Virus record (IMG/VR): IMGVR_UViG_3300022891_000003
Span: 1-63,221 of that record
Reading direction: 5' to 3' (one strand)
Origin: a virus
Lineage: Duplodnaviria; Caudoviricetes
Length of the DNA: 63,221 nt
Shown here: piece after piece, positions 2,188 to 63,040 of the stretch
Layout: each line of letters begins with the position of its first letter
Position numbering within the stretch: position 1 is the stretch's first letter
Program-made: the position numbers and the translations under genes
The notes under the pieces: generated by a model
Database searches by the model: none
What the model was told of the DNA's origin: nothing
Seen by the model: the letters and a program-made list of their open reading frames with translations, nothing else

Positions 2188-2880
2188 ATGGGATGGACAC
2201 CGAAGCGCACCAGCGGGGCGGGGTCGAGCGCTGGAGATGGCTCGGCCTCCCCCACCCCACCTCGTCGCAGGCGTAGCGCCGTAGTGGCGGCCGGAACGGA
2301 CGACCTACCGGCCGCGCCGGTACGGCCTCCGGGTGGTGTGAACAATCAGGCAGGTTACGGCCGGGATGACAGGCCGCGTGACATCACCGTGCGCCTTGGC
2401 AAGCGGTGGAGCGAGATCGTAGGCAATGTCAAGGCGGGTGAGTACACCTGGGCCGAGTTCGTAGACGGCCTGGATGAGGAGGAACTGGCCCGTGGCCAGC
2501 TGAAAGACAAGAACGGCAAGTTCCAGGGGCGCCCGCCCACCGTGGTACCGCGCGAGTTCCTGCTGGCCTGCCAGCGGGAGATGAAGCGCCGTTTCGACGA
2601 GCTCTTCCAGAGCGACGTTATCCCCATCGCCAAGGAATACCTGAAGATGGCGCAGTCCAAGGACCTGAAGCCCGAGACCAAGGCGAAGATGTTGCAGTAC
2701 GCCATGGAGCGGGTGTTCGGGGGCATCCCCAAGGACGTCACCATCCGTCAGGAGCAGCCGTGGGAGCAGCTCGTGGTTAACGTCATGGGCAGCGACGACG
2801 ATCGGCAGATACCTCCGCATCTTCAGGAGCGCTACGAGCGCTACGAGGAGCGTAAGGGCGGGGATAACTTCGAGGAGTAG
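2188..2880 (+). CDS. Terminase small subunit (putative)
   Basis: LDEEELARGQLKDKNGKFQGRPP motif recalled from actinophage TerS-like proteins; upstream of TerL. Confidence 0.6.
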   Translation: MGWTPKRTSGAGSSAGDGSASPTPPRRRRSAVVAAGTDDLPAAPVRPPGGVNNQAGYGRDDRPRDITVRLGKRWSEIVGNVKAGEYTWAEFVDGLDEEELARGQLKDKNGKFQGRPPTVVPREFLLACQREMKRRFDELFQSDVIPIAKEYLKMAQSKDLKPETKAKMLQYAMERVFGGIPKDVTIRQEQPWEQLVVNVMGSDDDRQIPPHLQERYERYEERKGGDNFEE

Positions 2881-2886
2881 GGGGAC

Positions 2887-3186
2887 GTGGTGGCTAGCGC
2901 GGACATGGAGACCGTTGTCACCTTCTTCGCTAATCCGTACCTGCGTTGCGACACTTGCGGCAGGCGCGCCGTGGGTATCGTAGGCGCGATGAATCAGGTG
3001 GTGAACCTACTCAACGGGCTCATCACCGTGACAGTTCCAGGCACGGCGCTCAACTGGCCGTGCTATGACCAGGCCACCCGCACTAGCGTGTGCGAGAACT
3101 GGACCAGCACCACCGGTTGCCAGCACGTGATGGCGGATCGGGCTCGGCACAGCAACAGCTTCACGTTCGAGGGAACGAGGAGGTGA
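2887..3186 (+). CDS. Cys-rich hypothetical protein
   Basis: CxxC plus further Cys/His. Confidence 0.5.
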   Translation: MVASADMETVVTFFANPYLRCDTCGRRAVGIVGAMNQVVNLLNGLITVTVPGTALNWPCYDQATRTSVCENWTSTTGCQHVMADRARHSNSFTFEGTRR

Positions 3187-3190
3187 GGTT

Positions 3191-3310
3191 ATGGCAGGCA
3201 ACAGCATCAAGTGTCCGCGTGTGTACCGTGCCCTGAGGCGGAAGGGCTACGGCAAGACCAAGGCGGCTACCATTAGCAACGGCCTACGCAAGAAGAGAGG
3301 ACACTGCTAA
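3191..3310 (+). CDS. Small basic protein
   Basis: GAGG RBS; MAGNSIKCPRVYRALRRKGYGKTKAATISN..., 39 aa, below the ORF-track cutoff. Confidence 0.55.
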   Translation: MAGNSIKCPRVYRALRRKGYGKTKAATISNGLRKKRGHC

Positions 3311-3498
3311 TGGCGCAGCCCGAGGAAGAGACCCCGGTAGAAGGCACCAAGACCCATGTCTACGAGATCAGGGTGACGGTGCCGCAGAGCACTACCCTGC
3401 CCGTTGACGAAGACGTGGTGGACGCGGTGCGCGGTGCGGTCGGTGGTAGCCTGCCTACCGAGGCCCTCCGCATCAGTGCCAGTTACGACGAGATCTAA
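3310..3498 (+). CDS. Hypothetical protein
   Basis: TAATG coupling. Confidence 0.55.
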   Translation: MAQPEEETPVEGTKTHVYEIRVTVPQSTTLPVDEDVVDAVRGAVGGSLPTEALRISASYDEI

Positions 3499-3597
3499 CA
3501 ACAGACCCTCGGCCCCGTAGGCAGGCGAATGCGCCACCGGTACGTCCGGAGCGTAGAGCGACCAAGCGCGGGGCCGAGCTATACCTAGGAGCTAGGC

Positions 3598-4053
3598 GTG
3601 CTAACCGTTACCAAGTCGACCGTGACGGCCATTCTGCGCTGGGCCAGCGAGCACCCCGAGGTGGAGGTCTGCGGGCTCGTATGGGCTTCTGAGCGGCCTG
3701 GAGCCTTCCGTCAGACGGTGCACCCGCTGCCCAACATCCACCCGAAACCGCAGAACTACTACCGCACGGCGCCGAAGGACGTTCGTGAGGCGTTCGAGTT
3801 GATGGACGAGCAAGGCGGAGAGCCGTTGGCCTGGTATCACAGCCATCCGAGCGGTAAGCCGGACCCCAGTGTGGAGGACATGCTGGGTGCCATGAACACC
3901 GGCATGCATTACCTCATCGCTTATCCGGACAAGGAGCTGGCGGCCAAGATGCGTGGCGACCTGTTCCGCGAGGGGCCGCCCTGGCGCATCAGCGCGTGGG
4001 AGTGCATCAGCACTGGCGTGCTGGTCGAGGCGGAATACGAGGTGCAGGGATGA
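3598..4053 (+). CDS. JAB/MPN+ (Mov34) metallopeptidase
   Basis: EVCG...WYHSHPSGKPDPSVED = JAMM motif E...HxH-x7-S-xx-D. Confidence 0.85.
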   Translation: MLTVTKSTVTAILRWASEHPEVEVCGLVWASERPGAFRQTVHPLPNIHPKPQNYYRTAPKDVREAFELMDEQGGEPLAWYHSHPSGKPDPSVEDMLGAMNTGMHYLIAYPDKELAAKMRGDLFREGPPWRISAWECISTGVLVEAEYEVQG

Positions 4054-5688: not shown

Positions 5689-7212
5689 GTGTCACAGCCC
5701 GTAGCGTTCAGCCAGTGGTCGAGCGCGAGTCAGTTCGTCAAGACCCTGCCAGGCTGGGTGCCACCGACGCACCAGCAGCGCATCGCCGCGTACGGCATCT
5801 ACAACGAGATTTACTGGAGCCACATCTCCAGTGAGTACAAGGTGATGAACCGTGGTCTGGATGCGGATGACCAGCCGGTGTACGTACCCAGCAGCCGCAT
5901 CGTTGTCGACACTATCAACCGGTACGTGGCGCCCAAGCTCACGTTCAGCGTCGATCCGGCCACCGGGACGGAAACCAGCCAGCTCCAGGCGCGCCAGGCG
6001 TTCGAAGCGCTGTTCGCTCGGGAGCGATGGGGCAGCCGGTACAACGCGGCCAAGCGCGACGGAACCATCAACGGAGACTGGGGCTGGCACATCACCGCCG
6101 ACCCCGCCAAGGAGCAAGGCAAGCGCCTGAGCATCGTGCCGTTCCGGGCGGAGAGCTACTTCCCGGTGTTCGAGGACGAGATGGTGCTCGGCGGGGACCC
6201 GGACAAGATGGTCATGGTCGTGCTGGCCGAACAGGTACAGGTCGGGGAGGACACGCGCGTCCGCACGCAGCGTTACGTCCGCCAGGAAAACGGCACCATC
6301 GCGAGTACCGTCGACCTGTGGGAGCCGGACAAGTGGTTCCTGTGGGGGTACGCCGATGACGACGCGGACCCCGTCGAGGTAATCAGCCCTCCCACCCTCC
6401 TTCCCGCAGGTATCACGGCTTTCCCGGTGTATCACGTGCCGCACCGGCCTAGCGTGGGCGAGACGTTCGGTAGTAGCCCGATGCGCGGTCTCGAGGTGCT
6501 TCAGGCGGCCCTGAACCAGGGCATGACCGATGAGGACCTGAGCTTGGCGCTCATGGGCCTAGGCGTGTACGCCACGGACGTGGCCGGTAGTCCACGTAAC
6601 GACCAAGGGGAACTGATCACCTGGCCCATCTACCCTGGTGCGGTCATCGAAAACAGCAAGGGCTTCCGCAAGGTGGAGGGCTTGACCGGCCTCCAGCCGT
6701 ACACCGACCACCTCGGTCGCCTGGAGGGGTACTACGGGGACGCTACCGGCGCCACGGACGCGGCGCGCGGGCGGGTGGAGGTGCAGGAGGCGGAGAGCGG
6801 GGTGGCCCTGCGGCTGCGGCTCGGCCCGACACTGGCGTTGGCGGAGGATCAGGACGCCATCATCCTGGACGTGCACGCTCAGATGTTCTATGACCTAGTG
6901 CAGATGTGGTTCCCGGCCTACGAGCAGCTCAACTTCACGGACGTCACGGTCAAGCCGGTGCTGGGGGACAAGCTCCCCGTAAACCGCAAGGAAGAAGTGG
7001 AGATGGTCAACGGTCTGGTGCTCGGGGGAATCCTCAGTGCGGCCAGCGCGCGGCAGTACCTCGTCAAGCGTGGCTTCGCAGATCTGTTCGACCCGCGCGA
7101 GGGCGAGCTGGTGCTCGCGGAGAAGGTCGCGAACTCGGCGGCCGAGCAGGGGGACAGCGCCCTCGAGGGCCGGGAGAAGGACGAACTGGCCGACGGGGAC
7201 GTCGATGAGTGA
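5689..7212 (+). CDS. Portal protein
   Basis: 507 aa immediately after TerL; ESGVAL motif typical of SPP1-like portals. Confidence 0.85.
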   Translation: MSQPVAFSQWSSASQFVKTLPGWVPPTHQQRIAAYGIYNEIYWSHISSEYKVMNRGLDADDQPVYVPSSRIVVDTINRYVAPKLTFSVDPATGTETSQLQARQAFEALFARERWGSRYNAAKRDGTINGDWGWHITADPAKEQGKRLSIVPFRAESYFPVFEDEMVLGGDPDKMVMVVLAEQVQVGEDTRVRTQRYVRQENGTIASTVDLWEPDKWFLWGYADDDADPVEVISPPTLLPAGITAFPVYHVPHRPSVGETFGSSPMRGLEVLQAALNQGMTDEDLSLALMGLGVYATDVAGSPRNDQGELITWPIYPGAVIENSKGFRKVEGLTGLQPYTDHLGRLEGYYGDATGATDAARGRVEVQEAESGVALRLRLGPTLALAEDQDAIILDVHAQMFYDLVQMWFPAYEQLNFTDVTVKPVLGDKLPVNRKEEVEMVNGLVLGGILSAASARQYLVKRGFADLFDPREGELVLAEKVANSAAEQGDSALEGREKDELADGDVDE

Positions 7213-8603: not shown

Positions 8604-8743
8604 TGCCCGTGATCACGTATCGATGCACGTGGTGCAGTCGCGTGCGGCTGTGGCTGCACGGGCTCCTGGTCTGTACGTGGTGCGACCACGCGAACAGCAT
8701 GCCGAACGCGGACCAGGTGGAGAGGCCACCCGATGCCCGTTAA
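8603..8743 (+). CDS. Small Zn-ribbon protein
   Basis: CTWC...CTWCD; TGATG coupling. Confidence 0.45.
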   Translation: MPVITYRCTWCSRVRLWLHGLLVCTWCDHANSMPNADQVERPPDAR

Positions 8744-11342
8744 CTTCGTGAACCCGTACTCGGGAGAACCGGAGCAGACGTGCAGCGTCAGCTTCGGCGC
8801 ACAGACTCAGCTCGCGGACGCCGTCGGCAAGCCGCTGACCGAGGCGGAGTTCGGCAAGGGCAAACTGCTGGGTGAGTGGGGTGTCATCAAAGCCAAGCTT
8901 GCCAAGAAGGAGATACCCGACGGAACCAAAGTGCTCAGCTACGAGAACGAGGCGCTGGGCAGTCGAGGATTTCTGTTCATAAAGAACGGAGAGCTGTGGA
9001 AGACCACCTACCATCCGAAGCTAGGTAGGAATGTATCTCCTACAAAGGCAAAGCAGGGCGAGCTGTTCATTAACAGCGGAATCTACAAGGTCAGCATCCC
9101 GCAGGCGGTAGCTCCGGCCAACCAGCAGAAGCCGGAGGCCGTTGACGTAACCCCGGACTACATCACGAAGATTGCGCTGGCAGACGTCAAGAAGTTCAAG
9201 GACGGCCAGGTGTTCGCGGTCAAGGCCACCGGAGAGTTTGTTCGGTGGAACGCCAAGGATTCCGGGTTCTTCGAGCATGTGGTGCCGGACCCCAGCGGAT
9301 ACGGCAACGTCGTTCAGAAGGAGTTCGTGTTCTTCAACGACGAGGTGAAGAGCGGGCAGGGCTGGCTCGTGCCAGATGGCAGCAGCACCACTCCGAGCGC
9401 AACCGCCAAGAAGGTGGCTCCGCCGCCGACCAACCTTACGGCACCCATCGCCTCTCCCACCCCCGCCCCTCCCGTGCAGTCTGGAAGTACTAGCCCAGGC
9501 AGCATGAGTCACGAAGACGTGGCGGCCATGTTCGTCAAGATCAAGGACGACCTGGCTAAGGAGAAGGGGCTGAATATCAAGGGGGCCAATGCCGCGCTAG
9601 ACGAAGAGGTGTATAAGGCCATCGGGGGCGCTACCGGCTACACTCCGGTAGAGGTCAAGGCCAAGATCGATGCATACAAGGCGGCCGGTAACAAGCTCAG
9701 CGCGCTGAAGAAGAAGGTGCTGGCGGGCACGTACAAGGTTCCGGAAGGCAAGGCGGTACCGGCTAAGCAGTCGGCGCCGAACAGCCCGCTGGCCAAACCC
9801 ACGACCAAGGCCAAGGCGCCTGACCCCAAGCCGCATGGCGTGCCTACGGTGGCTACGCCGAAGCTGACCGAGGCTATCAAGGTCGAGGTCAAGCAGGCGG
9901 TGGAAGCCAAGCCTGCCAAGGTGTACAGCGATGAAGACGTGGCCAGTGCGTACATCATCGCCAAGGACGCCATCGTGGCGAACAACACCAAAGGCTGGAC
10001 GCTCTACACCAAGAATGACGAGTTCGATCTGGAGATAGCTGTCCAGGTGGGGCTCAAGACGGGGCTGAACCCGGCTCAGCAGAAGGCGGCTATTGCCAGC
10101 TACCTCGCCAGCGGCAAGAAGCTGAGCACGCTCAAGAAGCAACTCGCCAAGCAGGGTGCCTTCACTCCGCAGGCGGACAGCTTGAAGAAGAGCGGTACGG
10201 CTAAGACTGCGGCGGAGAAGAAGGCGGAGGTGGATGCCAAGGCGGACGCGGGTTACACCCCCACACCCACGATCACCACCCCGGCAAAACCGGCCACGAA
10301 AGCCAACCCTTCTGGTTCTCCGGCCGTAGATACGGCCAAGCCACCACCCAAGGCGGCGGAGAAAGACTATCTGGGTTCTGGCGACCCCTCTTGGATGATG
10401 GACCATAACAAGTCCAGCATCTTCACCAGCTTCAAGCTGGACCAGGGGAACAAGGCATGGCTCAGCGGCTCTGCCATCGATAACTATGAAGCCATTCTCA
10501 ATACGTACGAGAAGTTCAAGGACTTCGCGTGGGTAGACAAGAGCTTCAGCCTGCTACAGGTCCTTCGCGTTGTAGACGAGGAGGGCGCTAAGAAGGCGGG
10601 GGTGGCTAACGGTCATCTATTCGAGAAGAAGATTGTCGAATGGCTGACCACTCCGGCTGGCACTCAGGCCATCAAGGACCTGGAGCATAAGAAGGCCAAG
10701 GAAGCTGTCGCGAAGGCGGCCAAGGAGGCTAAGACCAAGGCGGAAGCTGAGGCCGCCAAGAAGCTCATGGCTAATCAGCCGCCCCTTCCGGCTGACAGCG
10801 CATCTTTCCAGGAGATGACTCCGACCAAGGCTCTGCGGTTTCAGGAAAGAATGCTTGCGGCTAAGCCGTTCGGCAGTGGGGAAAAGACCGGCCTCCGGCA
10901 CTACACCGGCGATGCGTACATCGAGATGAACAGCTACCTGCGCGGGCAGTCCACCAGCATCGGCACCACGAGCAAGCGGGCTATTGACCAAAGCTCGCGG
11001 GGTATGCGGCCTAGCCCGGAGCCGATGCTGTTGCGGCGCGGTACTGGATTCATTCAGTTCGGGTCGGACGTTAACGCCAATACCATCTGGGGCATTACCG
11101 GCAAGACCTTCGAGGACAAGGGCTTCCTCAGCACTAGCGCAGCCGGGAAAGCGGCTTTCGGTGGTCAGGTGGCCATGGAGATCGAGGCTCCCGCCGGAAC
11201 GCCTGGTATGTGGGTGGACAACTTCAGCAAGCATCCCGGTGAGAACGAGTGGCTTCTGGATAAGGGCACCAAGATGAAAGTTCTAAACGTGCGCAAGGAA
11301 GGTAACACGTTCGTCGTGCGACTTAGGGTGGTGAACGACTGA
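8733..11342 (+). CDS. Large protein with C-terminal VIP2/C3-like ADP-ribosyltransferase domain
   Basis: YT..Y..MN.YLR, RRG, GFLSTS and ENE (R-S-E) motifs; Ala/Lys/Pro-rich linkers and two internal repeats. Confidence 0.85.
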   Translation: MPVNFVNPYSGEPEQTCSVSFGAQTQLADAVGKPLTEAEFGKGKLLGEWGVIKAKLAKKEIPDGTKVLSYENEALGSRGFLFIKNGELWKTTYHPKLGRNVSPTKAKQGELFINSGIYKVSIPQAVAPANQQKPEAVDVTPDYITKIALADVKKFKDGQVFAVKATGEFVRWNAKDSGFFEHVVPDPSGYGNVVQKEFVFFNDEVKSGQGWLVPDGSSTTPSATAKKVAPPPTNLTAPIASPTPAPPVQSGSTSPGSMSHEDVAAMFVKIKDDLAKEKGLNIKGANAALDEEVYKAIGGATGYTPVEVKAKIDAYKAAGNKLSALKKKVLAGTYKVPEGKAVPAKQSAPNSPLAKPTTKAKAPDPKPHGVPTVATPKLTEAIKVEVKQAVEAKPAKVYSDEDVASAYIIAKDAIVANNTKGWTLYTKNDEFDLEIAVQVGLKTGLNPAQQKAAIASYLASGKKLSTLKKQLAKQGAFTPQADSLKKSGTAKTAAEKKAEVDAKADAGYTPTPTITTPAKPATKANPSGSPAVDTAKPPPKAAEKDYLGSGDPSWMMDHNKSSIFTSFKLDQGNKAWLSGSAIDNYEAILNTYEKFKDFAWVDKSFSLLQVLRVVDEEGAKKAGVANGHLFEKKIVEWLTTPAGTQAIKDLEHKKAKEAVAKAAKEAKTKAEAEAAKKLMANQPPLPADSASFQEMTPTKALRFQERMLAAKPFGSGEKTGLRHYTGDAYIEMNSYLRGQSTSIGTTSKRAIDQSSRGMRPSPEPMLLRRGTGFIQFGSDVNANTIWGITGKTFEDKGFLSTSAAGKAAFGGQVAMEIEAPAGTPGMWVDNFSKHPGENEWLLDKGTKMKVLNVRKEGNTFVVRLRVVND

Positions 11343-16029: not shown

Positions 16030-16110
16030 TCCGGAGCGCGGGGAGGCCGGTTCCATTGCGGTCGCTGGTCCTCCCCGCCCTCCCCATCCGCAGTAAGGAG
16101 GGTAGTAGAA

Positions 16111-50612: not shown

Positions 50613-50867
50613 AGGCCCGTAACGTAGACCGCATCATCCTTACGCTCATCGCCGTCGGGCTCATCGGCGGTATGACGTACGTGGTGGTGACCAGGTGAAG
50701 GCGTGGGAGCTTAAGACCGGCCAGCGCATCCGGCACAGCGTCGAGGTGGTTTACTTGAAGACCATCAGTCACACCATGGGTAACATCATCCACGTTACTG
50801 CTCGCCGACCGAACGGGGAGTTGATCAACCTCCAGCTCCTTCGCGAGTGGGACGTGGAGGTCGTGCA

Positions 50868-53475: not shown

Positions 53476-56400
53476 GCGCGCTGAGCTGCACGCGCACACC
53501 ACGTTCAGCCCGGGCGACGGGTATGCCATGCCGCAAGCGCACTTCGAGGCGTGCGCAGAGCTCGGCATTACGGCGCGTGCCCTCACCGAGCATGGGAACG
53601 TGAGCAGCCATGCAAACGCGGAGCGCGCAGCGGCCAAGGTCGGCGTGAAGGACATCAAGGGCTGCGAGCTCTACTGCGAGACCGAGGATGAACGGGGCCA
53701 GCTAAAGCACCACCTGACTGTACTCGCCATGAACGACACCGGCCTGCGCAACCTCTATGAGGTGGTGACGAAGAGCTGGGACAACTTCCGATACAAGCCA
53801 ACCACCACTGGCGAGATGCTGGCCGAGCACAACGATGGTCTCATCGTGCTGTCGGGCTGCCTCGGCGGCCGGTTGGCTACTGCGGTGATGGGAGGGAAGG
53901 GTGGGGAAGAACACGCGGCGGACCTGGAGGCGGGCTCTCGAGTTGCGGGGCAGTTCCGAGAGGTATTCGGTGACCGATACTATCTGGAGGTGCAGGCGCA
54001 CCCACTGCTCGAAAAGCAGCGTGCGTACAATCGTGCAGTGGCACGTATTGGCCAACGAATGCGTATACCACTCGTGGCAACCGGTGACGTGCATTACCCG
54101 ACGGAGGATGACCAGGACATCTACCCCATCCTCCACGCTATCGACCGGGGCGGCTCGCGCAACACGGTTGAGGCGCAGGCGCAGAGCTGGGAGTACGGTC
54201 TGGTACTTGCGCACCAGTCAGCTGACGCTGTATATGAGGGGCTCAGAGAAACTGGCCTACGCAGCTCGGTGGCGGATAGCGCTATTGAAACCAGCCTCGA
54301 GATATCGGACCGTTGCAACGTCACTCTCCCGAAGCTCAAGGACCTGGTGTTCCCCGGGGAGGCACCGAGCCGGGAGCTGTTCATGCAATGGCTCCGGGAG
54401 GGTTGGCGGTACCGGGGGCTGAACCGGCTTACCGGGGCTACCCGCAAGGCGTACCTGGCTCGTCTGAAGTATGAGACAGAACTCATTCTGTCGAAGGGCT
54501 TCACCGACTACTTCTTGGTCATCAGCGAGATGGTGAAGTGGTCCAAGCAGCACGGCATCCCCGTCGGCCCGGCGCGCGGCTCGGCCGCTGCGTCGCTGGC
54601 GTGCTGGCTGCTGCGCATCACCGAGGTCAACCCAATGCTGTTCCCCAACCTCATCTTCGAGCGGTTCATTGACATCAATCGGCACGACCTGCCGGACGTT
54701 GACCTTGACTTCGACGACGAGCTGCGGCACAAGGTGCGCGAGCATCTGGTAGAGCTGTACGGCGCAGAGCGCGTGGGTAACATCGGAACGTTCACCATGT
54801 ACCGGGGCAAGAACAGTCTAGAGGACGTGGCCCGGGTGTTCAACATCCCGAAGACTGCGGTGGAGGAGGTGAAGGGAGGGCTGCTGGAGCGTTCTTCGGG
54901 TGACCTGCGGTACGGCCAAACCATCGAGGACTCCCGCGCGTTGTTCCCCAAGGTCGAGGCGGTGTTCACCAAGTACCCCGACCTCAACCACTCACAGCGG
55001 CTCGAGGGCAACGTCAAGGGCTTCAGCGTGCATGCGGCCGGGCTGGTGGTGGCCAACGGCTCGCTGACCGAGAACCTGGCGGTGTACAAGCGCGTTGACC
55101 CGAAGGGCAACGTCATCGGCGAGGTGCTCAGCATTGACAAGTACGACGCTGAGTACTTGAACGTTTTGAAGATCGATGCGCTGGGCCTGACCACCATGGG
55201 CCTCATCCGACGGGCGCTGAACTACATCGGAATGACGCTGGAGGATTTGTATGCTGTCCCGCTGGATGACGAGAAGGTCTACGAAGGTTTCCGGCGGAAT
55301 GAGGTCATTGGCATCTTTCAGTTTGATGGGCGTGCCATGCGTTCTGTCAACCGAGAAGTCAAGCCGGACACGTTCGCAGAGGTCTGTGACATTAACGCTT
55401 TGGCTCGGCCCGGTCCGCTGCACTCTGGAGCGGCTGCCGAGTACATCATGGCCAAGCACAAGAAGAAGATGGTGGAGAAGCTCCACCCCATCGTGACCGC
55501 CATCACCGCGCACACCAACGGGCAGATCGTTTACCAGGAGCAGATCCTGCGGGTAGTGCGGGAGCTCGGCGGGTTCACGTGGGAAGAGGCCGCCCTGGTC
55601 CGCAAGCTCATCAGCAAGAAGCAGGGCGAGCAGGCGTTCAACCGGCTCATGGGCAAGTTCCTCGAGGGCTCCCGGGCCAAGGGCGTCAAGGACGCGGTGG
55701 CGGCCAAGGTGTGGAAGCAAATCGTGACCGCTGGCGCGTACGCCTTCAACGCCGCGCACTGTGTCTCGTACGGGATGCTGGCCTACTGGACCATGTGGCT
55801 AAAGCAGAATCATCCGCTGGCCTTCTACGCGGCAGCCCTGGCCAAGTACAAGGACGAGGACAAGGTGCTGGACATCCTGAAGGAGGTGACCGGCAAAGGT
55901 ATCCGTGTACTCCCGCCGCACCCCGAGCTCTCGCATCTCACGTGGAGCATCGAAGGCGACGCCCTGCGGGCTGGCCTGGTGCAGGTGAAGGGCATCGGCG
56001 AGAAGACGGCCGAGCTGATGCTGGCACATCGCGATGCATGCGGACCACACAGTATGATCGACTGGGCCGACTACACCGCCGTCAAGGGTATCGGCCCGAA
56101 GACCATGGAGACGGTGCAGGAGTTCTGCGCCAAGGAAGACCCGTTCGGTATCCACCAGCTGCGTCGGTCGCTGGATCGCATGCGCTGGTGGATCAAGGAG
56201 AAGGGGGCCAAGTTTGACCTCCCCTACCCTTCCTCCCGCAGTGAGGACATCCCCTACGAAGCCATCCGGGGCGAGCACGTCTGGCTGGGCCGCATCGTGC
56301 ACCGCAACCTGAAGGACATCTACGAGCTGCACCGCTCGCGGACCGGCGAGGAGCTGGACCCCAAGAAGGTCAAGGAGCCGCAGTACGTCAACTACGCCGT

Positions 56401-56593
56401 GCTAGTTGGCGAAGATGAGACCGGTCCGTTGACCATCACGGTGCACCGGTACGGCGGGTTATACGAAAAGTTCAAGGACGACATCTGGGACATCGACCAA
56501 GATAAGGACCTGGTTCTGGTTCGCGGCTACAAGCGGGCCGAGTACCGCCGAGCCATCTATGCCACCGAGCTACACGTACTGACGGGAGAATGA
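53468..56593 (+). CDS. dnaE: DNA polymerase III alpha subunit
   Basis: PHP LHAHTTFS, ARGSAA, PDVDLD, HAAG, KIDALGL, YAFN..H. Confidence 0.95.
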   Translation: MRKRAELHAHTTFSPGDGYAMPQAHFEACAELGITARALTEHGNVSSHANAERAAAKVGVKDIKGCELYCETEDERGQLKHHLTVLAMNDTGLRNLYEVVTKSWDNFRYKPTTTGEMLAEHNDGLIVLSGCLGGRLATAVMGGKGGEEHAADLEAGSRVAGQFREVFGDRYYLEVQAHPLLEKQRAYNRAVARIGQRMRIPLVATGDVHYPTEDDQDIYPILHAIDRGGSRNTVEAQAQSWEYGLVLAHQSADAVYEGLRETGLRSSVADSAIETSLEISDRCNVTLPKLKDLVFPGEAPSRELFMQWLREGWRYRGLNRLTGATRKAYLARLKYETELILSKGFTDYFLVISEMVKWSKQHGIPVGPARGSAAASLACWLLRITEVNPMLFPNLIFERFIDINRHDLPDVDLDFDDELRHKVREHLVELYGAERVGNIGTFTMYRGKNSLEDVARVFNIPKTAVEEVKGGLLERSSGDLRYGQTIEDSRALFPKVEAVFTKYPDLNHSQRLEGNVKGFSVHAAGLVVANGSLTENLAVYKRVDPKGNVIGEVLSIDKYDAEYLNVLKIDALGLTTMGLIRRALNYIGMTLEDLYAVPLDDEKVYEGFRRNEVIGIFQFDGRAMRSVNREVKPDTFAEVCDINALARPGPLHSGAAAEYIMAKHKKKMVEKLHPIVTAITAHTNGQIVYQEQILRVVRELGGFTWEEAALVRKLISKKQGEQAFNRLMGKFLEGSRAKGVKDAVAAKVWKQIVTAGAYAFNAAHCVSYGMLAYWTMWLKQNHPLAFYAAALAKYKDEDKVLDILKEVTGKGIRVLPPHPELSHLTWSIEGDALRAGLVQVKGIGEKTAELMLAHRDACGPHSMIDWADYTAVKGIGPKTMETVQEFCAKEDPFGIHQLRRSLDRMRWWIKEKGAKFDLPYPSSRSEDIPYEAIRGEHVWLGRIVHRNLKDIYELHRSRTGEELDPKKVKEPQYVNYAVLVGEDETGPLTITVHRYGGLYEKFKDDIWDIDQDKDLVLVRGYKRAEYRRAIYATELHVLTGE

Positions 56594-57273
56594 TCATGGC
56601 AAAGTTCAGCGAGCACGGGGTGGCCTACCTGACCGAGCCACGCCCGGGGGTACCGCAGGCAGCGGAGCCGTTCTACTGGGACCGCCGGTTGTCAGTGGCT
56701 GCCAACGTCGGAGCCATCCAGCACTACATCAACAAATACGAGCGGATGCTGCCCAGTAGTAATCTGTTCGACGAGGCGGCCATCATGGTTCCGAACAGGG
56801 CCGTGGAAGAGCGGCTTTGCAACGAACTGACGCTGGGTGGCTGGCATGAGTTCAACAGCGCCTACGATCTGGTGCACACCAGCCCGTTCGGCACGCGGTA
56901 CATCGTGACGTACAAGTTCTACCGGCACTCCGCCGTGCCGTGGCGGCTGGAGGTCATGCGTCTGGGGCACAAGGCCACCGGTGATGGCCTGGCTGGTTTC
57001 AGCCCGTTGCATCAGGCCCTATGGACGGACGGAGACACACCGGCGTGGGAGGATTGGGCCGAGCTGCCAGTGCCGCACCTGAGCTTCAAGCCGGTGGGGC
57101 AGGATGCGGGGAGAGCTGCCCGGCGGGCGCTGGACCACATGCGTAACGAGATGGGCTTCCTGCTGGCGCAGGGCTGCCAGTCCACGTACGGCGAGTTCTG
57201 GTACCTGCTGCACCAGGACGCCCCTCGCCAGCTCTACATCAAGCCGCGCATCAACCGCAGGGACGGAGCGTGA
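56590..57273 (+). CDS. Hypothetical protein (possible VOC-like fold)
   Basis: LEV, HLSFK, YIKPRIN; sits inside the nucleotide cluster. Confidence 0.55.
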   Translation: MIMAKFSEHGVAYLTEPRPGVPQAAEPFYWDRRLSVAANVGAIQHYINKYERMLPSSNLFDEAAIMVPNRAVEERLCNELTLGGWHEFNSAYDLVHTSPFGTRYIVTYKFYRHSAVPWRLEVMRLGHKATGDGLAGFSPLHQALWTDGDTPAWEDWAELPVPHLSFKPVGQDAGRAARRALDHMRNEMGFLLAQGCQSTYGEFWYLLHQDAPRQLYIKPRINRRDGA

Positions 57274-57373
57274 CGCCGCACGAACAGTGCCCGCTCAAGG
57301 AGAAGCACGGCTATCACGAGTGGTACAAAGGACCTTTCCGACGTCAGTGCAAGGGGAGAAAGAAGGCAGCCAA

Positions 57374-58066
57374 GTGAACAAGATTCTCGTAGTGGGGGCA
57401 CGGCCCCGGTCTATCGGCAGCGCCATCGCCAAGGTTGCCGAGAGCAAAGAGTACGAAGTGGTGCTGGCCGGTATCCACAACGAAGACGTGAAGATGGATG
57501 TGGTGGCCGACGCCATCGGCAGCTTGCGGGAAAAGCTGGTGCGCATCAACCCCGACCACATCATCTGCACGGTCGGCATGAACATGCCCGAGTCCGCCAT
57601 GGCCGACGATCCGGCCGACTGGTACCGCTGGCACTTCGAGACCAACGTGACCGGTCCGATGCGGTTGTTGCAGGCGTGGACCGACGTGAACAAAGACCGC
57701 AGCATGCTCAAGCACTACGTCGCCATCAGCAGCAACAGCGCCCGAGTGCCGCGCACCGCTTCAGCCGCGTACTGCGCTAGCAAAGCGGCCCTCTCGCAGG
57801 CCCTGCGGGTGAAGGCGCGGGAGGGAGAAGGCGGCGACAAGTGGGGAGTCGTGGTCTACGGCTACGAGCCTGCGCTCATCGCCGCGACGCCCATGACCGA
57901 GGAGGCGGCCCACAAGTGGGGTGCCGACAACCTCACCCGCATGCGCGGTTCTGGGCTGGCAAGGGGCATCTGGGTCGGCTCTTTTGCCCAGTACGTAGTG
58001 CACGGCCTACATCTCGGGCCTGCCATGAACGGCATGCTGGTGCCGTTTGATGGGGATGAGCGCTGA
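57374..58066 (+). CDS. Short-chain dehydrogenase/reductase
   Basis: VVGA...IG, N..G, ISS, YCASKAAL. Confidence 0.85.
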   Translation: MNKILVVGARPRSIGSAIAKVAESKEYEVVLAGIHNEDVKMDVVADAIGSLREKLVRINPDHIICTVGMNMPESAMADDPADWYRWHFETNVTGPMRLLQAWTDVNKDRSMLKHYVAISSNSARVPRTASAAYCASKAALSQALRVKAREGEGGDKWGVVVYGYEPALIAATPMTEEAAHKWGADNLTRMRGSGLARGIWVGSFAQYVVHGLHLGPAMNGMLVPFDGDER

Positions 58067-58252
58067 ACGGCCCGTTAGGGTTGCGGTGGGCAGTTTGGTG
58101 TGGCAAGGTTTGCCCCGTGAAACTGGTACGCGACATCGCATGCTTCCTGGCTTTGCCTGCCGGTCTTGTGCTGGGGCTGGCAGGCCACATGGTGAGAGTA
58201 GCGGGGTAAGGCCCCCCGACCCGCTCTCTCCGCAGGGTTGGCCCACCCTGCG

Positions 58253-58321
58253 ACCCCTGCTAGCCGCCGCCCGTGGAGGGATGGCGTGGGATTACTGCCC
58301 GTTCGAGTCGGGCCAGGGGTA
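58253..58321 (+). ncRNA. tRNA-like RNA 5 (acceptor + T arm, single internal hairpin)
   Basis: ACCCCTG/CAGGGGT; GCCCG-TTCGAGT-CGGGC. Confidence 0.65.
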
Positions 58322-58358
58322 CGACGCCGCACAGTGCGGCGCGATTGAAAGGAACGCA

Positions 58359-58904
58359 GTGAACAACGAAGAGACCATGATCGTGATGACCAAGGACCAG
58401 CTCGCGGCGACCAAGAAGAAGGGTCGTCGCATCCTCGGCATCCCGGCCATCATCGCCGCCCCCATCGCGGCCGTTCTCGCCTTCGGCGGCGTCGCCCTCG
58501 CGGCGATCCTGTTCAGCATGACCGGCTCGGCCACGGCGCAGGCCGACAACGGCACCACCCCGACCATCTCCGGCGAGCACTTCAGCGGCAAGTTCTACCC
58601 CGGCGCGGAGCGGGACCTGATCTTCACGGTCAACAACACCAACGAGTTCCCGGTCAAGGTCACCAGCATCGCCGCGACCGGCATCTCGGACCTGACGGCG
58701 GGCTGCGAGGGCGGCGCCAAGCTGAGCGGCTTCGCCACGGCGTTCAACCAGGACAAGGCGCTGGCCGGTGGTGGCGTCACGGTTCCGGCCGGGGACTCGG
58801 CCGTCGTGACCATCCCCAAGGCGGTCAAGCTGCACCCGTCGGCGACCGCCGGGTGCGGCTTCAAGATCAACCTCAAGGTAACCGGCTCCGGCGCGGGAAA
58901 CTAA
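58359..58904 (+). CDS. Secreted pilin/fibre-like Ig-fold protein (short form)
   Basis: AAAGG RBS, GTG 58359; KKKGRR + hydrophobic + ALA signal peptide; YPG...F.V.N.N.FPV motif; two Cys. Confidence 0.75.
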   Translation: MNNEETMIVMTKDQLAATKKKGRRILGIPAIIAAPIAAVLAFGGVALAAILFSMTGSATAQADNGTTPTISGEHFSGKFYPGAERDLIFTVNNTNEFPVKVTSIAATGISDLTAGCEGGAKLSGFATAFNQDKALAGGGVTVPAGDSAVVTIPKAVKLHPSATAGCGFKINLKVTGSGAGN

Positions 58905-59011
58905 CCGGGCTCGCTCGTACCGGCGGCAACCTCTGGCCGCTTGCGGCAGCTGGAGTCGCGCTGGTACTGGCGGGTGTGCTAGTTCGAAGGGTAGGGTTTG
59001 GTCATGGGTAG
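58895..59011 (+). other. Predicted -1 frameshift site and LARTG sortase-anchor extension
   Basis: G_GGA_AAC at 58895-58901 immediately before TAA; -1 frame reads LTGLARTGGNLWPLAAAGVALVLAGVLVRRVGFGHG*. Confidence 0.75.
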
Positions 59012-59123
59012 TAAACCACCGAAGACACCACCGTCAAGGCCGATTCGCCAACCCGCCAAACCGCAGTACCCGAAACCGGCCCCCACCCCTCGGCCAGCGC
59101 CGAGGCCAGGGCCCAAGAGGTAA
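59004..59123 (+). CDS. Pro/Arg/Lys-rich peptide
   Basis: MGSKPPKTPPSRPIRQPAKPQYPKPAPTPRPAPRPGPKR, followed by a hairpin. Confidence 0.4.
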   Translation: MGSKPPKTPPSRPIRQPAKPQYPKPAPTPRPAPRPGPKR

Positions 59124-59156
59124 CACGCGGGGTCGGCCGCCACCGGCCCCGCTTAC

Positions 59157-59214
59157 GCCCCGAGCCAGCTAACACCTGGGCAGGAAACCAGCGGTTCGAA
59201 TCCGCCGAGGGGCA
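59157..59214 (+). ncRNA. tRNA-like RNA 6 (minimal)
   Basis: GCCCC/GGGGC-A-CGCA; CCAG/CTGG hairpin; GCGG-TTCGAAT-CCGC. Confidence 0.55.
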
Positions 59215-59226
59215 CGCAGTACCACG

Positions 59227-59241
59227 ACTACCCGGGAGGGT
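59227..59241 (+). promoter_or_regulatory. GGGA-loop RBS hairpin
   Basis: ACTACCC-GGGA-GGGT before ATG 59244. Confidence 0.75.
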
Positions 59242-59243
59242 GT

Positions 59244-59402
59244 ATGGCTATCTTCGATTTCGTTTTCAGGAGCGTTAGAACCGGGGACAAGAACACCGGC
59301 GGCTCGTACAACATGACCACTGGCAAGATTGTGCACCCACCCAAGGGCTCGGGCAAGAAGGCGCCGGTGGTCAAGGCCAAGATGCAGAGGCGAGAAAAGT
59401 GA
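59244..59402 (+). CDS. Small basic protein
   Basis: 52 aa behind the RBS hairpin, GTGA-coupled to the ThyX-like gene. Confidence 0.6.
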   Translation: MAIFDFVFRSVRTGDKNTGGSYNMTTGKIVHPPKGSGKKAPVVKAKMQRREK

Positions 59403-60613
59403 GCGCAGGACAGATTACCGACCACCCGTACATCGGCGAGCTGGGCCCGGGAGGCTCTTGTCAGTACGTGCACCGAGAGCGCCGGGGTGCGGGTAGCGAT
59501 CCGTGGTGGGAGGAAACCTTCTGCGGACGGCAAGCCATGGACCACTCCGAGGCGTACCAGAGCGACGAGCAGTTCGCTGCGCTCAAGAGCGATCTGGATC
59601 GGCACGAAGCAGTACGTAAGGCCACGATGAAAGGTCAGCTGGTCCGGAAGGCCGACGTGGCGCAGTACGAACGGCCGCCGATGCCGGATGCCGCTCGGCG
59701 CGGTCCGGTGGTGACCCTCATCGACGCTCCCGTGGATCCACTGGGCACGCTGGCCGTGATCGGCGGTATCTACACCGGAAACGTCTATCGGTCGAAGGCC
59801 GAGGTTACCGACGAGCAGCGCCGCGCGATGCTGGCGGAAATGCAGGCGACCGTGCTCAACGGTCCGCTAGAGTCCATCGTGTTCACCTTCCTGGTCGAGG
59901 GCGTAGGGCGGGACATCACGCACCAGATGGTGCGCGGGCGGTTCGCCTTCTACGCGCAGGAGTCGCTTCGCTTTGCGGTGGCGGAGGACTGGGCGCAGGA
60001 GGTGCCGCTGCCGCCCTCCCTGGCCTCCCTCCCGCAGGACCACCCCGCTGTCGGGGTGTGGCTCAAGGCGCTGAACGGTGCCGAGGACTCCTACGCCGCG
60101 CTCATCGGTGCGGGCATACCTGCGGAGGAGGCGCGCAAGGTGCTGCCGCACGCTATCACGACTAGGTTGCACTGGGTGGTCTCGCTGCGCACGCTGGTGC
60201 AAGAGGCGGGTAAGCGCACGTGCACGCAGGCGCAGTTCGATTGGCGGCAGATCTTCGGTGGCGTGGCCAAGGAGTTCCGGGAGCGCAGTGTGTTCTCAGG
60301 TGTGTACGACGTGCCGTTTGACGGGGCACCAGGAACAGCTCCTATGAACGACGCATGGCAGTACAAGGCGTTCGCCGACCTGATGCGGCCGGTGTGCTAC
60401 CAGACCGGGTCGTGCGGCTTCATGGCTAAGTTCGACCGGGGCTGCACCATCCGTTCGCGGGTGGACAAGCTCGAAGCTTTGGGCGTTCCGAGCAGCGAGT
60501 GGCACAACGGATGGACCCCGCCGGACAATGAGGCGGGTCCCGGTGTGGCTCCTATCTGGCCCGAAGAGTGGGCGGCGGACCCTGCGGCGGCGAGGGTCAG
60601 GGAGGAAGACTGA
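59399..60613 (+). CDS. thyX: ThyX-like FAD-dependent thymidylate synthase with N-terminal extension
   Basis: GPLE...F.F...GV.R..THQMVR.R...YAQESLR, EEAR.VLP. Confidence 0.8.
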   Translation: MSAGQITDHPYIGELGPGGSCQYVHRERRGAGSDPWWEETFCGRQAMDHSEAYQSDEQFAALKSDLDRHEAVRKATMKGQLVRKADVAQYERPPMPDAARRGPVVTLIDAPVDPLGTLAVIGGIYTGNVYRSKAEVTDEQRRAMLAEMQATVLNGPLESIVFTFLVEGVGRDITHQMVRGRFAFYAQESLRFAVAEDWAQEVPLPPSLASLPQDHPAVGVWLKALNGAEDSYAALIGAGIPAEEARKVLPHAITTRLHWVVSLRTLVQEAGKRTCTQAQFDWRQIFGGVAKEFRERSVFSGVYDVPFDGAPGTAPMNDAWQYKAFADLMRPVCYQTGSCGFMAKFDRGCTIRSRVDKLEALGVPSSEWHNGWTPPDNEAGPGVAPIWPEEWAADPAAARVREED

Positions 60614-60894
60614 TGAACGGCAACCAGCAACGCGAGGCACTGGCGAGCGGGCAGCCCGTTCTCGAAGGACCGGAACCCGTTCGTATGGTTCCTGCCAACA
60701 AGCACCAGCCCGGCGGCAAGAGGATCCCGTCCGTCATGGTGGAAATGATGACTGGCATGATCCAAAACGGCATCGAGTTTGAGGTCTCTGTCAGCTCTGA
60801 GTTCCCCAACTACGATGGTCAGTATTACGCCATGATGACCTGGGGGAGCATGCTCGGGAAAAACTTGGCCAAGTGCACGTGCGAGGGGGAGTAG
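60613..60894 (+). CDS. Hypothetical protein
   Basis: GGAGG RBS; TGATG coupling. Confidence 0.55.
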   Translation: MNGNQQREALASGQPVLEGPEPVRMVPANKHQPGGKRIPSVMVEMMTGMIQNGIEFEVSVSSEFPNYDGQYYAMMTWGSMLGKNLAKCTCEGE

Positions 60895-61157
60895 TGGCCA
60901 CCCTGCTCGGGGCCCAGAAGGCGCTGGAGTCCGGTCGGGCGATGCACCCCGGAGAGGTGGCCCTGCTGCTGCGCTTCAACCCCAAGACGGTCAGCAGGTG
61001 GTGCAAGGACCGCAAGGTCCCGGCCTTCCAGACTCCCGGTGGACACTGGCGTATTCCTGCCCAGGTGGTCCGAGACATGTTGAACGGAAAGATCGAGTGG
61101 AACCGGGAAGAGATTGACCAATGGGCCAACCAGCCCTGGCTGAGGGGGAAGCCGTGA
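60894..61157 (+). CDS. BldC/excisionase-like MerR-family HTH protein
   Basis: PGEVALLLRFNPKTVSRW...TPGGHWR. Confidence 0.8.
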   Translation: MATLLGAQKALESGRAMHPGEVALLLRFNPKTVSRWCKDRKVPAFQTPGGHWRIPAQVVRDMLNGKIEWNREEIDQWANQPWLRGKP

Positions 61158-61351
61158 TCAAGAAGCATTACACCGTCACCGTTCAGGTGAAGGAGGTCAC
61201 CCCGGGCTACATCGAGGGGACGGGATCCAACGCCGTCCGGCACGACCGAGCGGTCGAGGACGTGATCAACATCTCGGTTCGGGCGGAGGACGAGGAGGAT
61301 GCTGTGCGGCTCGCCATGCAGCAGCTCACGGCGCTCGGAGGCCGGTCGTGA
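61154..61351 (+). CDS. Hypothetical protein
   Basis: Coupled ORF. Confidence 0.55.
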   Translation: MIKKHYTVTVQVKEVTPGYIEGTGSNAVRHDRAVEDVINISVRAEDEEDAVRLAMQQLTALGGRS

Positions 61352-61653
61352 ACAAGCAGGAGGCGCTGGAGGCGCTGCTTGAGGAGTGCCGCCTATACGA
61401 GCAGCCGCATGAGGAGACCCGGTTGGTTGACCCCAGCTCGGTGCATGACTACGTGCTGGACCGCGCACGCAAGCTGGAGACCATCGTGGCCACCGGCGGG
61501 GAGCCGGACCAGCTGTACGACCGGGTGCGGGCCGTACTTATCTCGTTGGCCGGTGGGGCCTTGTACCTACTGGTGGACGAGGTGGAGGTGGTGGAGACCC
61601 GGTCGCTGGAGGATTGGCTCGCCGATGTGGACCCGCTCGGGAAGAGGGACTGA
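61348..61653 (+). CDS. Hypothetical protein
   Basis: Coupled ORF. Confidence 0.55.
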   Translation: MNKQEALEALLEECRLYEQPHEETRLVDPSSVHDYVLDRARKLETIVATGGEPDQLYDRVRAVLISLAGGALYLLVDEVEVVETRSLEDWLADVDPLGKRD

Positions 61654-61880
61654 TGCCGAAGCTCGTGCAGTACAAGGTCAAGGTAGAGACGCGCGTGGTG
61701 GTTCTGGCAGACAACGAACCGGTGGCTGAGTACATCGTGGCTGCGGACAGCGACAAGCAGTGGAGCGACCGGCCCGGCGCTATCCCGAATCTGGTCGAGG
61801 TCGCCATGACCAAGAACGTGCGGCAGACCAAGGTGATGGCGGCAGCCGTCGAGAACAACGAAAGGAGTCGATTGAAATGA
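61653..61880 (+). CDS. Hypothetical protein
   Basis: Coupled ORF. Confidence 0.5.
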   Translation: MPKLVQYKVKVETRVVVLADNEPVAEYIVAADSDKQWSDRPGAIPNLVEVAMTKNVRQTKVMAAAVENNERSRLK

Positions 61881-61975
61881 CCTGGGACCAGGTTTTCATG
61901 GCCGTGGTGCTCATCGGCTGGACGGGGTTCGTCGCCGCGTTCGTCAAGGCCGTCAAGGCGGGGGACAAGAAATGA
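61877..61975 (+). CDS. Small membrane protein
   Basis: AAGGAG RBS; single TM. Confidence 0.5.
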   Translation: MTWDQVFMAVVLIGWTGFVAAFVKAVKAGDKK

Positions 61976-62688
61976 GCGTGGGCGTGAGCGGTCGTCGGCA
62001 CGTGTTCATCGGTACCGTCGGGGAGCAGTGTGAGAACGAGGCAAGCGAGTGCGGGCTGAACTACTCGGCCTCGTTGCACTACAACGATGACGACCACCCT
62101 TACGACCCGCCTTCAGAAGCGGAGGGCTGGGCTGCCTGTCAATGGCGTATGCAGAACGTGCCCGCTGGTCTCACGGAGCTCTACTGCCTGCGCGAGGAGG
62201 CGGACGCCGTGCACCATCACGACGACGAGCCGGTGACGGAGCGTATCGAGATGCCGTCGGCTGGTCGGCCGGTCATGGACGTGCCGTACGAAGACGGTGC
62301 GATGGGGGACGCCGGTTCGTGGGCCGCCCGGATGGCGGAACGCGTCGAGGGGATCGTGAGCGGGCTGCGTGTCTCGCCGGGGGAGATAGGGATCCCCGTC
62401 GGGAAGGAAGGCTCGGCCGCCCGGGCGCGCTGGAACCTGGAGAACGCGGAGCCGGTGAAGAGTGGCCCGTGGTCGGTCCGGCAGTGGTACGCCCCGGACG
62501 GCGGGCTGCCGGAGGACTGGGAGGAACCCGGGGAGCTCATCTGCGCGCTGAACGTCCTGGGGGAACCCTTCACGGTGGAGACGTGGTGGGCGGACAGCTC
62601 GACGCGTATGGTCCGCGTGGTGTGGGGTGCGCTGTACGGCGTCGGAGATAAAATTTTCCCGATGGTGGAGTCGTGGCCGGAGGGGTAG
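61972..62688 (+). CDS. Hypothetical protein with two N-terminal H-C-C-H modules
   Basis: HVF...C...CG...H and HPY...C...C...H. Confidence 0.6.
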   Translation: MSVGVSGRRHVFIGTVGEQCENEASECGLNYSASLHYNDDDHPYDPPSEAEGWAACQWRMQNVPAGLTELYCLREEADAVHHHDDEPVTERIEMPSAGRPVMDVPYEDGAMGDAGSWAARMAERVEGIVSGLRVSPGEIGIPVGKEGSAARARWNLENAEPVKSGPWSVRQWYAPDGGLPEDWEEPGELICALNVLGEPFTVETWWADSSTRMVRVVWGALYGVGDKIFPMVESWPEG

Positions 62689-63040
62689 GGGTCGTCCGGT
62701 GGGGTGTGCGTGAGGGGTCGTCCGTCGTAGTGGTGGCGGACGGCCTCTCGGCCTTTCAGCGAGAGGCGCGGTTGCGCGCGGCGGGGGTTGCGGCGCAGGC
62801 GTGTTGGAGCGTGCGAGACGGCGGGGATGCCTGGCATTTGATCTCGTGGGAGTCGCCGTTGCGCCCCGACCCCGCTCCGCCCGCAGGACCGACGCAGCGG
62901 CCTCAGATACCGCTTGGCCCTAGTGGTTTCGGGGAGTCGGTGAGTAGATGGCTTGGCGTGGCGTACGGGGCCGATAGCGTCGGTGTTGGTGGCGGGTGGC
63001 GAAGGTGGCTGCGTCGTAGTAACGGGCAAAAGGGGCGATA

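Follow-up and report, generated by a model that had tools for sequence, protein, structure and literature searches.

Why would a phage carry the same pyrimidine-rich word at even intervals through its genome, inside genes as well as between them? The question is raised by the complete viral record IMGVR_UViG_3300022891_000003 (Duplodnaviria; Caudoviricetes) of an uncultured soil phage, whose whole length of 63,221 nt we call the window. A preliminary description of this DNA, made from its letters alone, had noticed a C-rich pyrimidine tract followed by CGCAG at dispersed positions on both strands. We find strong support for selection that acts on this motif at the level of the nucleotide sequence and not of the encoded proteins, and on the plus strand its copies are spaced far more evenly than chance would allow. 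Based on its layout and on the genes of the phage, we propose, with a probability of about 35%, that the motif is a strand-specific signal on single-stranded DNA that provides start or landing sites for the phage primase-helicase encoded at 46748-49603.

The motif consists of a G-poor, C-rich tract of about 19 nt, then CGCAG, with G or T usually the next base; aligned on the core it spans about -19 to +5, some 25 nt in total. Pooled over 155 plus-strand sites in the eight genomes described below, the tract is 65% C, 18% T, 11% G and 6% A. The aligned copies have no conserved flank or hairpin beyond -20 to +6, folding them as single strands gave no conserved hairpin, and no Rfam family matches at the motif sites. 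We collected copies by a simple rule (YGCAG, where Y is a pyrimidine, with at least 15 pyrimidines in the 20 nt directly 5') and by a weight matrix, refined for each genome, with a threshold that allows at most one match in the reversed sequence. The copies form a class of their own: the pyrimidine count 5' of plus-strand YGCAG is bimodal, with a background peak at 9 of 20 and a second group, of 25 sites, with 16-19 pyrimidines (9, 10, 4 and 2 sites at 16, 17, 18 and 19), and few sites lie below that group (3, 2 and 1 at 13, 14 and 15).

The window holds 25 plus-strand copies, 23 with CGCAG and two with TGCAG, and every one of them is both a coordinate of the preliminary description and a match to the weight matrix. 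Nineteen (76%) lie in genes. On the left side of the genome these are 6385-6410 in the portal-like open reading frame (ORF) 5689-7212, the TGCAG variant 9455-9480 in the MuF-like ORF 8733-11342, 13382-13407 in ORF 12389-13480, 17705-17730 in ORF 17678-18088, and three copies (20394-20419, 21362-21387 and 23628-23653) in the tape-measure ORF 20112-23660. They are followed by the second TGCAG variant, 27100-27125, in ORF 26501-27649, and by 30597-30622 in ORF 30215-30667, 32208-32233 in the GDPD-family ORF 32204-33091, 34497-34522 in ORF 34312-34884 and 37795-37820 in ORF 37697-38407. The remainder are 43767-43792 in the exonuclease ORF 43100-44080, two copies (47396-47421 and 47799-47824) in the primase-helicase ORF itself, 51080-51105 in ORF 50868-51506, 53329-53354 in the dCTP-deaminase-like ORF 52969-53475, 56217-56242 in the DnaE ORF 53468-56593 and 60013-60038 in the ThyX ORF 59399-60613. 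Family matches and placement thus bear out the earlier statement that copies sit within the portal, tape-measure, DnaE and ThyX genes. The six intergenic copies are 2246-2271, 16069-16094 (22 nt ahead of ORF 16111), 28837-28862, 41599-41624, 58211-58236 and 62862-62887, the last near the right end. Copy 58211-58236 continues into a perfect inverted repeat, CGCAGGGT..ACCCTGCG at 58231-58252, which overlaps its core; the repeat has the appearance of a terminator hairpin, and the other copies do not show it.

The minus strand carries 16-17 copies. All eight reverse positions given in the preliminary description hold the motif, and reverse copies are indeed the fewer, but the eight were an under-count, since eight or nine more exist. 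Seven of the eight are matched by the matrix: 275-300 (antisense in ORF 120-473), 20846-20871 (in the tape-measure ORF), 35628-35653, 40201-40226 (in the SNF2 helicase ORF), 46102-46127, and 53879-53904 and 54854-54879 (both in the DnaE ORF). The eighth, the intergenic copy 26476-26501, follows the simple rule and falls under the matrix threshold, so that the matrix omits it (as 26481). Copy 46102-46127 lies in a 759-nt gap ahead of the primase operon and is retained in the related loci L007, L019 and L021. The simple rule contributes six further copies, all matched by the matrix as well, at 10211, 32410, 41260, 49844, 57807 and 60586 (spans 10206-10231, 32405-32430, 41255-41280, 49839-49864, 57802-57827 and 60581-60606); that at 41255-41280 is a TGCAG variant. 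The matrix alone contributes 12316, 23733 and 60124 (12311-12336, 23728-23753 and 60119-60144), the last of them weak. Four sequences that follow the rule and are poorer in C were left uncounted: 28316 on the plus strand and 37227, 53678 and 61745 on the minus strand.

To what extent could codon usage alone produce such numbers? Under a stricter rule (CGCAG with at least 16 of 20 pyrimidines) the window has 23 plus and 13 minus copies, against means of 5.5 and 3.7 over 200 synonymous-codon shuffles, and these means contain 5 plus and 2 minus intergenic copies that shuffling left unaltered. With the matrix, 19 plus sites in genes compare with a shuffle mean of 2.6 (maximum 6) and 15 minus sites in genes with a mean of 2.7 (maximum 8), so the counts on both strands exceed the codon-shuffled expectation. 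The copies have no relation to gene starts or ends: those inside genes on the plus strand lie 24-3536 nt from the gene start and fall in frames 0, 1 and 2 in 5, 7 and 7 cases. The copy at 47396-47421 in the primase-helicase gene shows the choice of codons directly. There the peptide FPSLSATAG is written in pyrimidine-rich codons, as CCC TCC CTC TCT GCC ACC GCA, in the window and in loci L018, L021 and L007; in locus L019, where the motif is absent at this place, a near-identical peptide is written CCG AGC CTG ACA GCT ACG GCC. Selection at the DNA level, which the preliminary description had suggested, is thus strongly supported by the use of three frames, the intergenic copies, this synonymous recoding and the enrichment of minus copies in a genome for which no minus-strand gene was called. 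An origin of the motif in one reading frame, through Pro-rich linkers, fails on the same frame counts and on the six intergenic copies.

Two other origins for such a word were considered and rejected. A eukaryote-like 3' splice site (a polypyrimidine tract followed by CAG/G) does not agree with ORFs that continue through the copies in all frames and whose products align with homologues. Restriction or BREX-type avoidance does not agree with the abundance of bare CGCAG, which occurs 174 and 131 times on the two strands. Searches for enriched k-mers with maximal-order and third-order Markov models recovered the motif poorly, and the k-mer AGGCCGAG reflects frame-bound codon usage.

Plus copies in the window are 403-4139 nt apart, with a mean of 2526 nt and a coefficient of variation (CV) of 0.37; random placement of 25 points gives a CV of 0.94, and none of 20,000 trials reached 0.37. 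The largest gap, 4139 nt, is matched by an equally small maximum in 0.02% of random trials, and the gap that wraps around the genome ends is about 2470 nt after removal of a 135-nt terminal redundancy. The spacing of 1-4 kb reported earlier is thus right, and it is far more even than chance. Minus copies in the window are less regular (CV 0.61-0.70, P 0.05-0.13). There is no pairing of plus with minus copies in the window, as judged by eye from the coordinates, with a nearest distance that averages about 880 nt against about 630 nt expected. Purine-rich tracts in the sense strand would make minus copies the cheaper ones: there are 51 pyrimidine-tract clusters on the plus strand and 165 on the minus strand, yet motif copies are commoner on the plus strand, so the bias opposes what coding makes cheap.

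We used relatives of the phage to follow the signal over evolutionary time. DnaE and primase searches of IMG/VR and of metagenome contigs gave 16 and 31 related loci, and 12 complete or near-complete relative records were compared with the window. Seven complete uncultured relatives carry the same signal, and together with the window they hold 155 plus and 98 minus sites by the refined matrices (plus/minus: window 25/16, G004 25/15, G005 19/11, G006 18/11, G009 24/9, G010 15/11, G011 11/12 and G012 18/13). Plus copies are evenly spaced in all eight genomes (CV 0.33-0.53, P at most 0.004), whereas minus spacing is significant at 0.05 in one of the eight. The CGCAG core is invariant across these genomes, and each lineage has flanks of its own: in G009, 97% of sites have T at -1; in G010 the core is followed by CC; and in G012 it is followed by T and the tract is shorter. 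A CGCAGCC variant was seen by eye in a further relative, G001, on which the matrix seeded from the window did not converge.

In a tree of DnaE, the motif genomes fall within one well-supported clade of 12 with G012 basal. The same clade contains G008 and G002, which are without the motif, G007 with a few copies, and G001 with its loose variant. No motif was found in the outgroups G013, Gumball and Wentworth or in Wollypog and AnnaSerena (cluster EF), and it is present in 0 of the 4 cultured phages checked. Because the motif genomes share one DnaE clade that has motif-less members inside it, the signal probably arose once and then decayed several times. A k-mer search of the motif-less relatives, which was not exhaustive, gave no comparable evenly spaced word. 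In G013 (loci L098-L101) the word GAAGCTCG occurs 21 times on the coding strand and 4 times on the opposite one, at uneven intervals (CV 1.03), and may be a different regulatory repeat. A pattern scan of viral_contigs (CCCTCCC, a gap of 6-14, CCGCAGG) was uninformative on the spread of the motif: among the matches listed, nearly all were single and on unrelated contigs, and only the relative G004 appeared three times.

Comparison of close relatives shows that individual sites turn over. Of the window sites that can be aligned with the closest relative, G004, 12 of 17 on the plus strand and 5 of 14 on the minus strand have a G004 site at the same position. For the five displaced plus sites the nearest G004 site is 87-881 nt away, and both genomes hold 25 plus sites. 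The fractions of shared sites with G006, G005 and G009 are 7/12, 4/8 and 3/6. Sites move, but every genome keeps a full and even row, which indicates selection for the density and spacing of copies, whatever their individual positions.

What could read such a row of sites? The preliminary description gave three alternatives: sites recognized by a primase, programmed nicking of the DNA, and a polar signal for translocation or recombination. Of these, the anatomy of the motif, its spacing and the type of primase encoded favor the first. With a fixed word at the 3' end of a stretch of kept composition, the motif is laid out like a primase template, in which a recognition word precedes the part that is copied. 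It is composition that is kept in the tract and not specific letters, which is unlike a protein site on double-stranded DNA. The obvious core candidate for the reader is the product of the plus-strand ORF 46748-49603, which combines a zinc ribbon (CxxH...CxxxC) and a Toprim primase domain with an MCM-like AAA+ helicase. Its zinc ribbon, CPLH...CFSRC, is of the DnaG/T7 type and is visible in the translation; the ORF matches Toprim_2 and DNA-primase PHROG families and, weakly, structures of E. coli DnaG. The fusion is unusual in joining a bacterial-type primase to a helicase family known for 3'-5' polarity.

In the mechanism that we propose, the invariant CGCAG at the 3' edge would position the enzyme, much as the zinc-binding domain does in T7 and bacterial primases. 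The primer would begin at a template C that lies in the word or directly precedes it (template triplet CCG or GCA) and would be copied leftwards over the C-rich tract. Both CCG (positions -1 to 1) and GCA (1 to 3) fit the rule of a pyrimidine start with an uncopied 3' neighbor, and either of the two, or neither, may be used. The product would be a purine-rich RNA (5'-..GCGG, then G/A), which would form a very stable hybrid with the template. If forks run the same way as transcription, by rolling-circle or co-directional replication, the plus strand would be the lagging-strand template, which would explain the plus bias and the interval of about 2.5 kb between sites; an even interval of this size fits Okazaki fragments. 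The sparser minus copies would serve forks moving the opposite way. The plus strand is G-rich (G 33.3% versus C 30.1%), as expected for a leading-strand product, although coding bias confounds this measure. Another version is conceivable because MCM-type helicases, as a family, translocate 3' to 5': an enzyme loaded on the tract might travel along the plus strand in the direction of primer synthesis, and each copy would then act as a small leading-strand start. The invariant core with lineage-specific flanks is what would be expected, on comparing these genomes, if a phage-encoded reader were co-evolving with its sites. Among known systems, T7 has been proposed to prime preferentially at 14-26 extended sites that lie 1-6 kb from one another and whose 3' flanks aid recognition, according to the part of that report available to us (PMC12839067). 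In the accessible portion of another study, the herpes primase UL52 copies pyrimidine templates from a cryptic 3' G, within 3'-G-pyr-pyr-5' (PMC8187027).

Several results weigh against a role in priming and keep our probability for it near one third. Primers of DnaG-type enzymes are about 4-12 nt, and the motif tract, at about 19 nt, is longer. The predicted single-strand accessibility of the tract is 0.46, against 0.41 for controls (P = 0.42). Minus copies are clearly selected and mostly uneven, which a simple model of forks moving in one direction does not predict, and even spacing would follow from any function that penalizes long site-free gaps. Homologous primase-helicases with the same zinc ribbon and 38-62% identity occur in Wollypog, G008, G002 and G013, which have no motif, so the primase family does not require it. 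Lastly, no gene tracks the motif, either by tblastn of the 93 window proteins or in ORF clusters of 13 genomes; any phage reader is therefore a core protein whose specificity drifts, and otherwise the reader is a host factor. Such a change of specificity is possible, given that the primases of sister genomes with and without the motif are only 54-62% identical. An alignment of the zinc ribbons of 13 primases, which are too few and in part incomplete, gave no residue pattern that separates the motif types.

The best gene correlate of the motif, an imperfect one that is also found in the motif-less G008, is the family of ORF 41803-42312. This ORF, located between the SNF2 helicase and exonuclease genes, contains 69-nt tandem repeats that code for basic units (..PAKPTTRSRSRKAAA..). 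Its homologues in nine relatives share a conserved domain at the N-terminus, and most have ..PF as their last residues, reminiscent of the C-terminal tip of single-stranded DNA-binding protein (SSB).

A dispersed, asymmetric and strand-biased signal with a short invariant core also suits programmed single-strand interruptions, made by a phage or host nickase at or beside CGCAG or left as unsealed junctions at fixed priming sites. The family scan found no ligase among 88 window proteins, so that fixed junctions could stay open, and unsealed Okazaki junctions of this kind would merge the nick and primase explanations. The same scan found no HNH or GIY-YIG nuclease, the families usual in nickases, among these proteins, most of which match no family. 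Nicks in T5 and phiKMV are on one strand, few and unevenly placed, whereas the motif occurs on both strands at about 3:2 (155 versus 98 over the eight genomes, 25 versus 16 in the window), and a nick site has no need of a 19-nt compositional tract. The words that mark nicks in Pseudomonas phages are likewise asymmetric, as given in the available text of two reports (PMC3517423, PMC11780129). We regard nicks as unlikely. A Chi-like polar signal, which would attenuate an exonuclease or helicase of the host or the phage or stimulate recombination-dependent replication, would account for the strand bias, the dense and even spread and the turnover of sites at constant density. It would guard the free ends of rolling-circle tails, which would require closely spaced copies of a single orientation. 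Among the phage proteins are a RecB-family exonuclease, a Sak4-like annealing ATPase and an SNF2 helicase, and patchy presence among sister phages would fit adaptation to different hosts. Chi and KOPS are words of 5-8 nt, whereas the motif is a composite of about 25 nt, with a degenerate tract and a 5-nt core and not a short exact oligomer, and its flank variants track phage lineages; we consider this explanation slightly less probable than nicks.

Sites on double-stranded DNA for a phage DNA-binding protein, whether stoperator-like, organizing the genome or aiding packaging, rank lower again. The stoperators of cluster A phages are dispersed asymmetric repeats, and the window encodes helix-turn-helix (HTH) and SAP-domain proteins. 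Such repeats are common in actinophages, as with the EC, EF, EG and EI motifs in the available part of one survey (PMC7302621). It is hard to reconcile binding of this kind with the placement of 19 of 25 plus copies within genes, without regard to frame or to distance from gene ends, with conservation of the composition of one strand and not of letters, or with the absence of a gene that co-occurs with the motif. An RNA element in long rightward transcripts, such as a rut-like C-rich patch for Rho, an RNase site or a protein-binding site, seems very doubtful to us. Every plus copy is transcribed, because all 93 called genes are on the plus strand, and Rho binds C-rich, G-poor RNA; against this, minus copies are enriched 5-6 fold without minus genes (98 sites in eight genomes), and the copies are unrelated to gene ends and match no Rfam family. 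The least probable explanation in our view is that non-B DNA itself is the signal, whether a triplex, an i-motif or, on the purine strand, a G-quadruplex. The strand opposite the tract is G-rich (mean G4Hunter score 1.76 over the 155 plus sites), and three runs of at least three C occur in 39% of tracts versus 22% of random tracts of the same composition, but four such runs are present in only 9 of 155 plus tracts, most having two or three, and structure leaves the invariant CGCAG and the lineage-specific flanks unexplained. We give a modest probability to the idea that the motif is no priming site and is a new periodic, strand-specific mark of "self", written through the genes of a clade of soil actinophages. 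Such a mark might consist of fixed single-strand gaps or nicks, or of a long attenuator of the Chi type that is recognized as single-stranded DNA by a phage protein without a known family. Its reader would evolve together with the bases next to CGCAG (G, T or CC behind it, T or C ahead of it).

How does the motif compare with systems already described? As in the sites of T7 gp4 (5'-(G/T)2GTC-3' with a 3' flank) and the trinucleotides of DnaG, a short fixed word lies 3' of the copied stretch. Sites of zinc-ribbon/Toprim primases are likewise strand-specific and spaced by kilobases, and the window encodes a primase of this type. Unlike the T7 and DnaG sites, the motif is about 25 nt long with a 19-nt tract, more evenly spaced, and placed within genes at an evident coding cost; the helicase partner in the window is MCM-like and not DnaB-like, and there are relatives that have the primase family and lack the motif. 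The use that we propose for the motif resembles that of herpes UL52, for which the accessible text describes a cryptic 3' G, a pyrimidine start, a purine-rich primer and a strong influence of the template flank, and which has no dedicated, evenly spaced genome-wide sites described there (PMC8187027). UL52 is an archaeo-eukaryotic primase and is unrelated to the Toprim enzyme of the window. The localized nicks of T5, tf and phiKMV-like phages are also at asymmetric dispersed words, to judge from the portions of these reports at hand (PMC3517423, PMC10644984, PMC11780129), and their consensus sequences differ from the motif. Other actinophage repeats (stoperators, SAS/ESAS, EC/EG/EI) share with it the many oriented copies; the available part of the Microbacterium phage paper places them in intergenic DNA, 14-30 nt upstream of start codons (PMC7302621), whereas the plus copies of the motif are mostly in genes. 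According to the same part of that paper, cluster EF phages have a replication module related to that of the window (PMC7302621), and the EF phage AnnaSerena has no motif. We did not find the motif described in the literature searched, including the portion of PMC7302621 available to us. Based on these comparisons, we propose that the motif is a signal of the primase-recognition type in a previously undescribed form, with a real chance that it is something new.

If the copies are primase start sites, this phage writes a map of Okazaki starts into its genome, at a cost in codon and even amino-acid choice, and the choice of a primase among thousands of trinucleotides becomes readable from sequence. 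Work on an unusual Toprim-MCM fusion enzyme would then also have a defined substrate of 25 nt. If the copies instead direct nicks or attenuate a nuclease, they are a new genome-wide polar signal in actinophages. Either way, the motif is a clean case of strong nucleotide-level selection over protein-coding sequence, and phage annotation and studies of codon usage should expect such overlays.

The genome itself is that of a siphovirus-like actinophage, as indicated by Pfam and PHROG matches, with a G+C content of 63.3% and a plus strand rich in purines. Gene calling by codon usage covers 89% of the sequence. The terminal 135 nt are identical at both ends (1-135 and 63087-63221) save for position 9 (G versus T), which indicates that the assembly is circular or has redundant ends and that its unit is about 63,086 nt long; the IMG/VR class is linear. 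Repeats and skew gave no clear candidate for an origin of replication in the window. The structural genes include those for terminase, portal-like, MuF-like, scaffold, capsid, tape-measure, Dit and holin proteins, and the genes for replication and nucleotide metabolism include an SNF2 helicase, the RecB-family exonuclease, the Sak4-like ATPase, the primase-helicase, a UDG-family protein, a dCTP-deaminase-like protein, DnaE and ThyX; the HTH and SAP-domain proteins mentioned above were found by the family scan. The closest cultured phages, at 45-48% DnaE identity, are Arthrobacter phage Wollypog, which is syntenic with the window, Microbacterium cluster EF phages, Streptomyces phage Wentworth and cluster D mycobacteriophages. 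Sequence of the phage is present in four leaf-litter metagenome runs (Logan contigs), and no RNA run with it is listed. The contigs over 43001-63000 are strain variants and contig pieces that carry no information on strand ends or nicks; among the rows listed, a few contig breaks lie close to motif copies, at a low depth, and we give them no weight.

Several further features of the window are of interest. ARAGORN predicts genes for tRNA-Leu(gag), tRNA-Cys(gca) and tRNA-Glu(ttc) at 31506-31594, 34942-35019 and 42348-42419, and of these three only tRNA-Glu is recovered by Rfam at the gathering score. The tRNA-Leu(gag) decodes CUC and CUU, codons that are found in the C-rich tracts of the motif. 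A Prok-JAB (JAB/MPN) domain protein is encoded at 3598-4053, just upstream of the terminase. The region 49776-60613 is a dense block of nucleotide metabolism (FAD-type oxidoreductase-like, HAD/PNK-like, UDG-family, dCTP-deaminase-like, DnaE, short-chain dehydrogenase and ThyX proteins) that might point to a modified base, and its ThyX, at 404 amino acids, has an N-terminal extension of about 130 amino acids.

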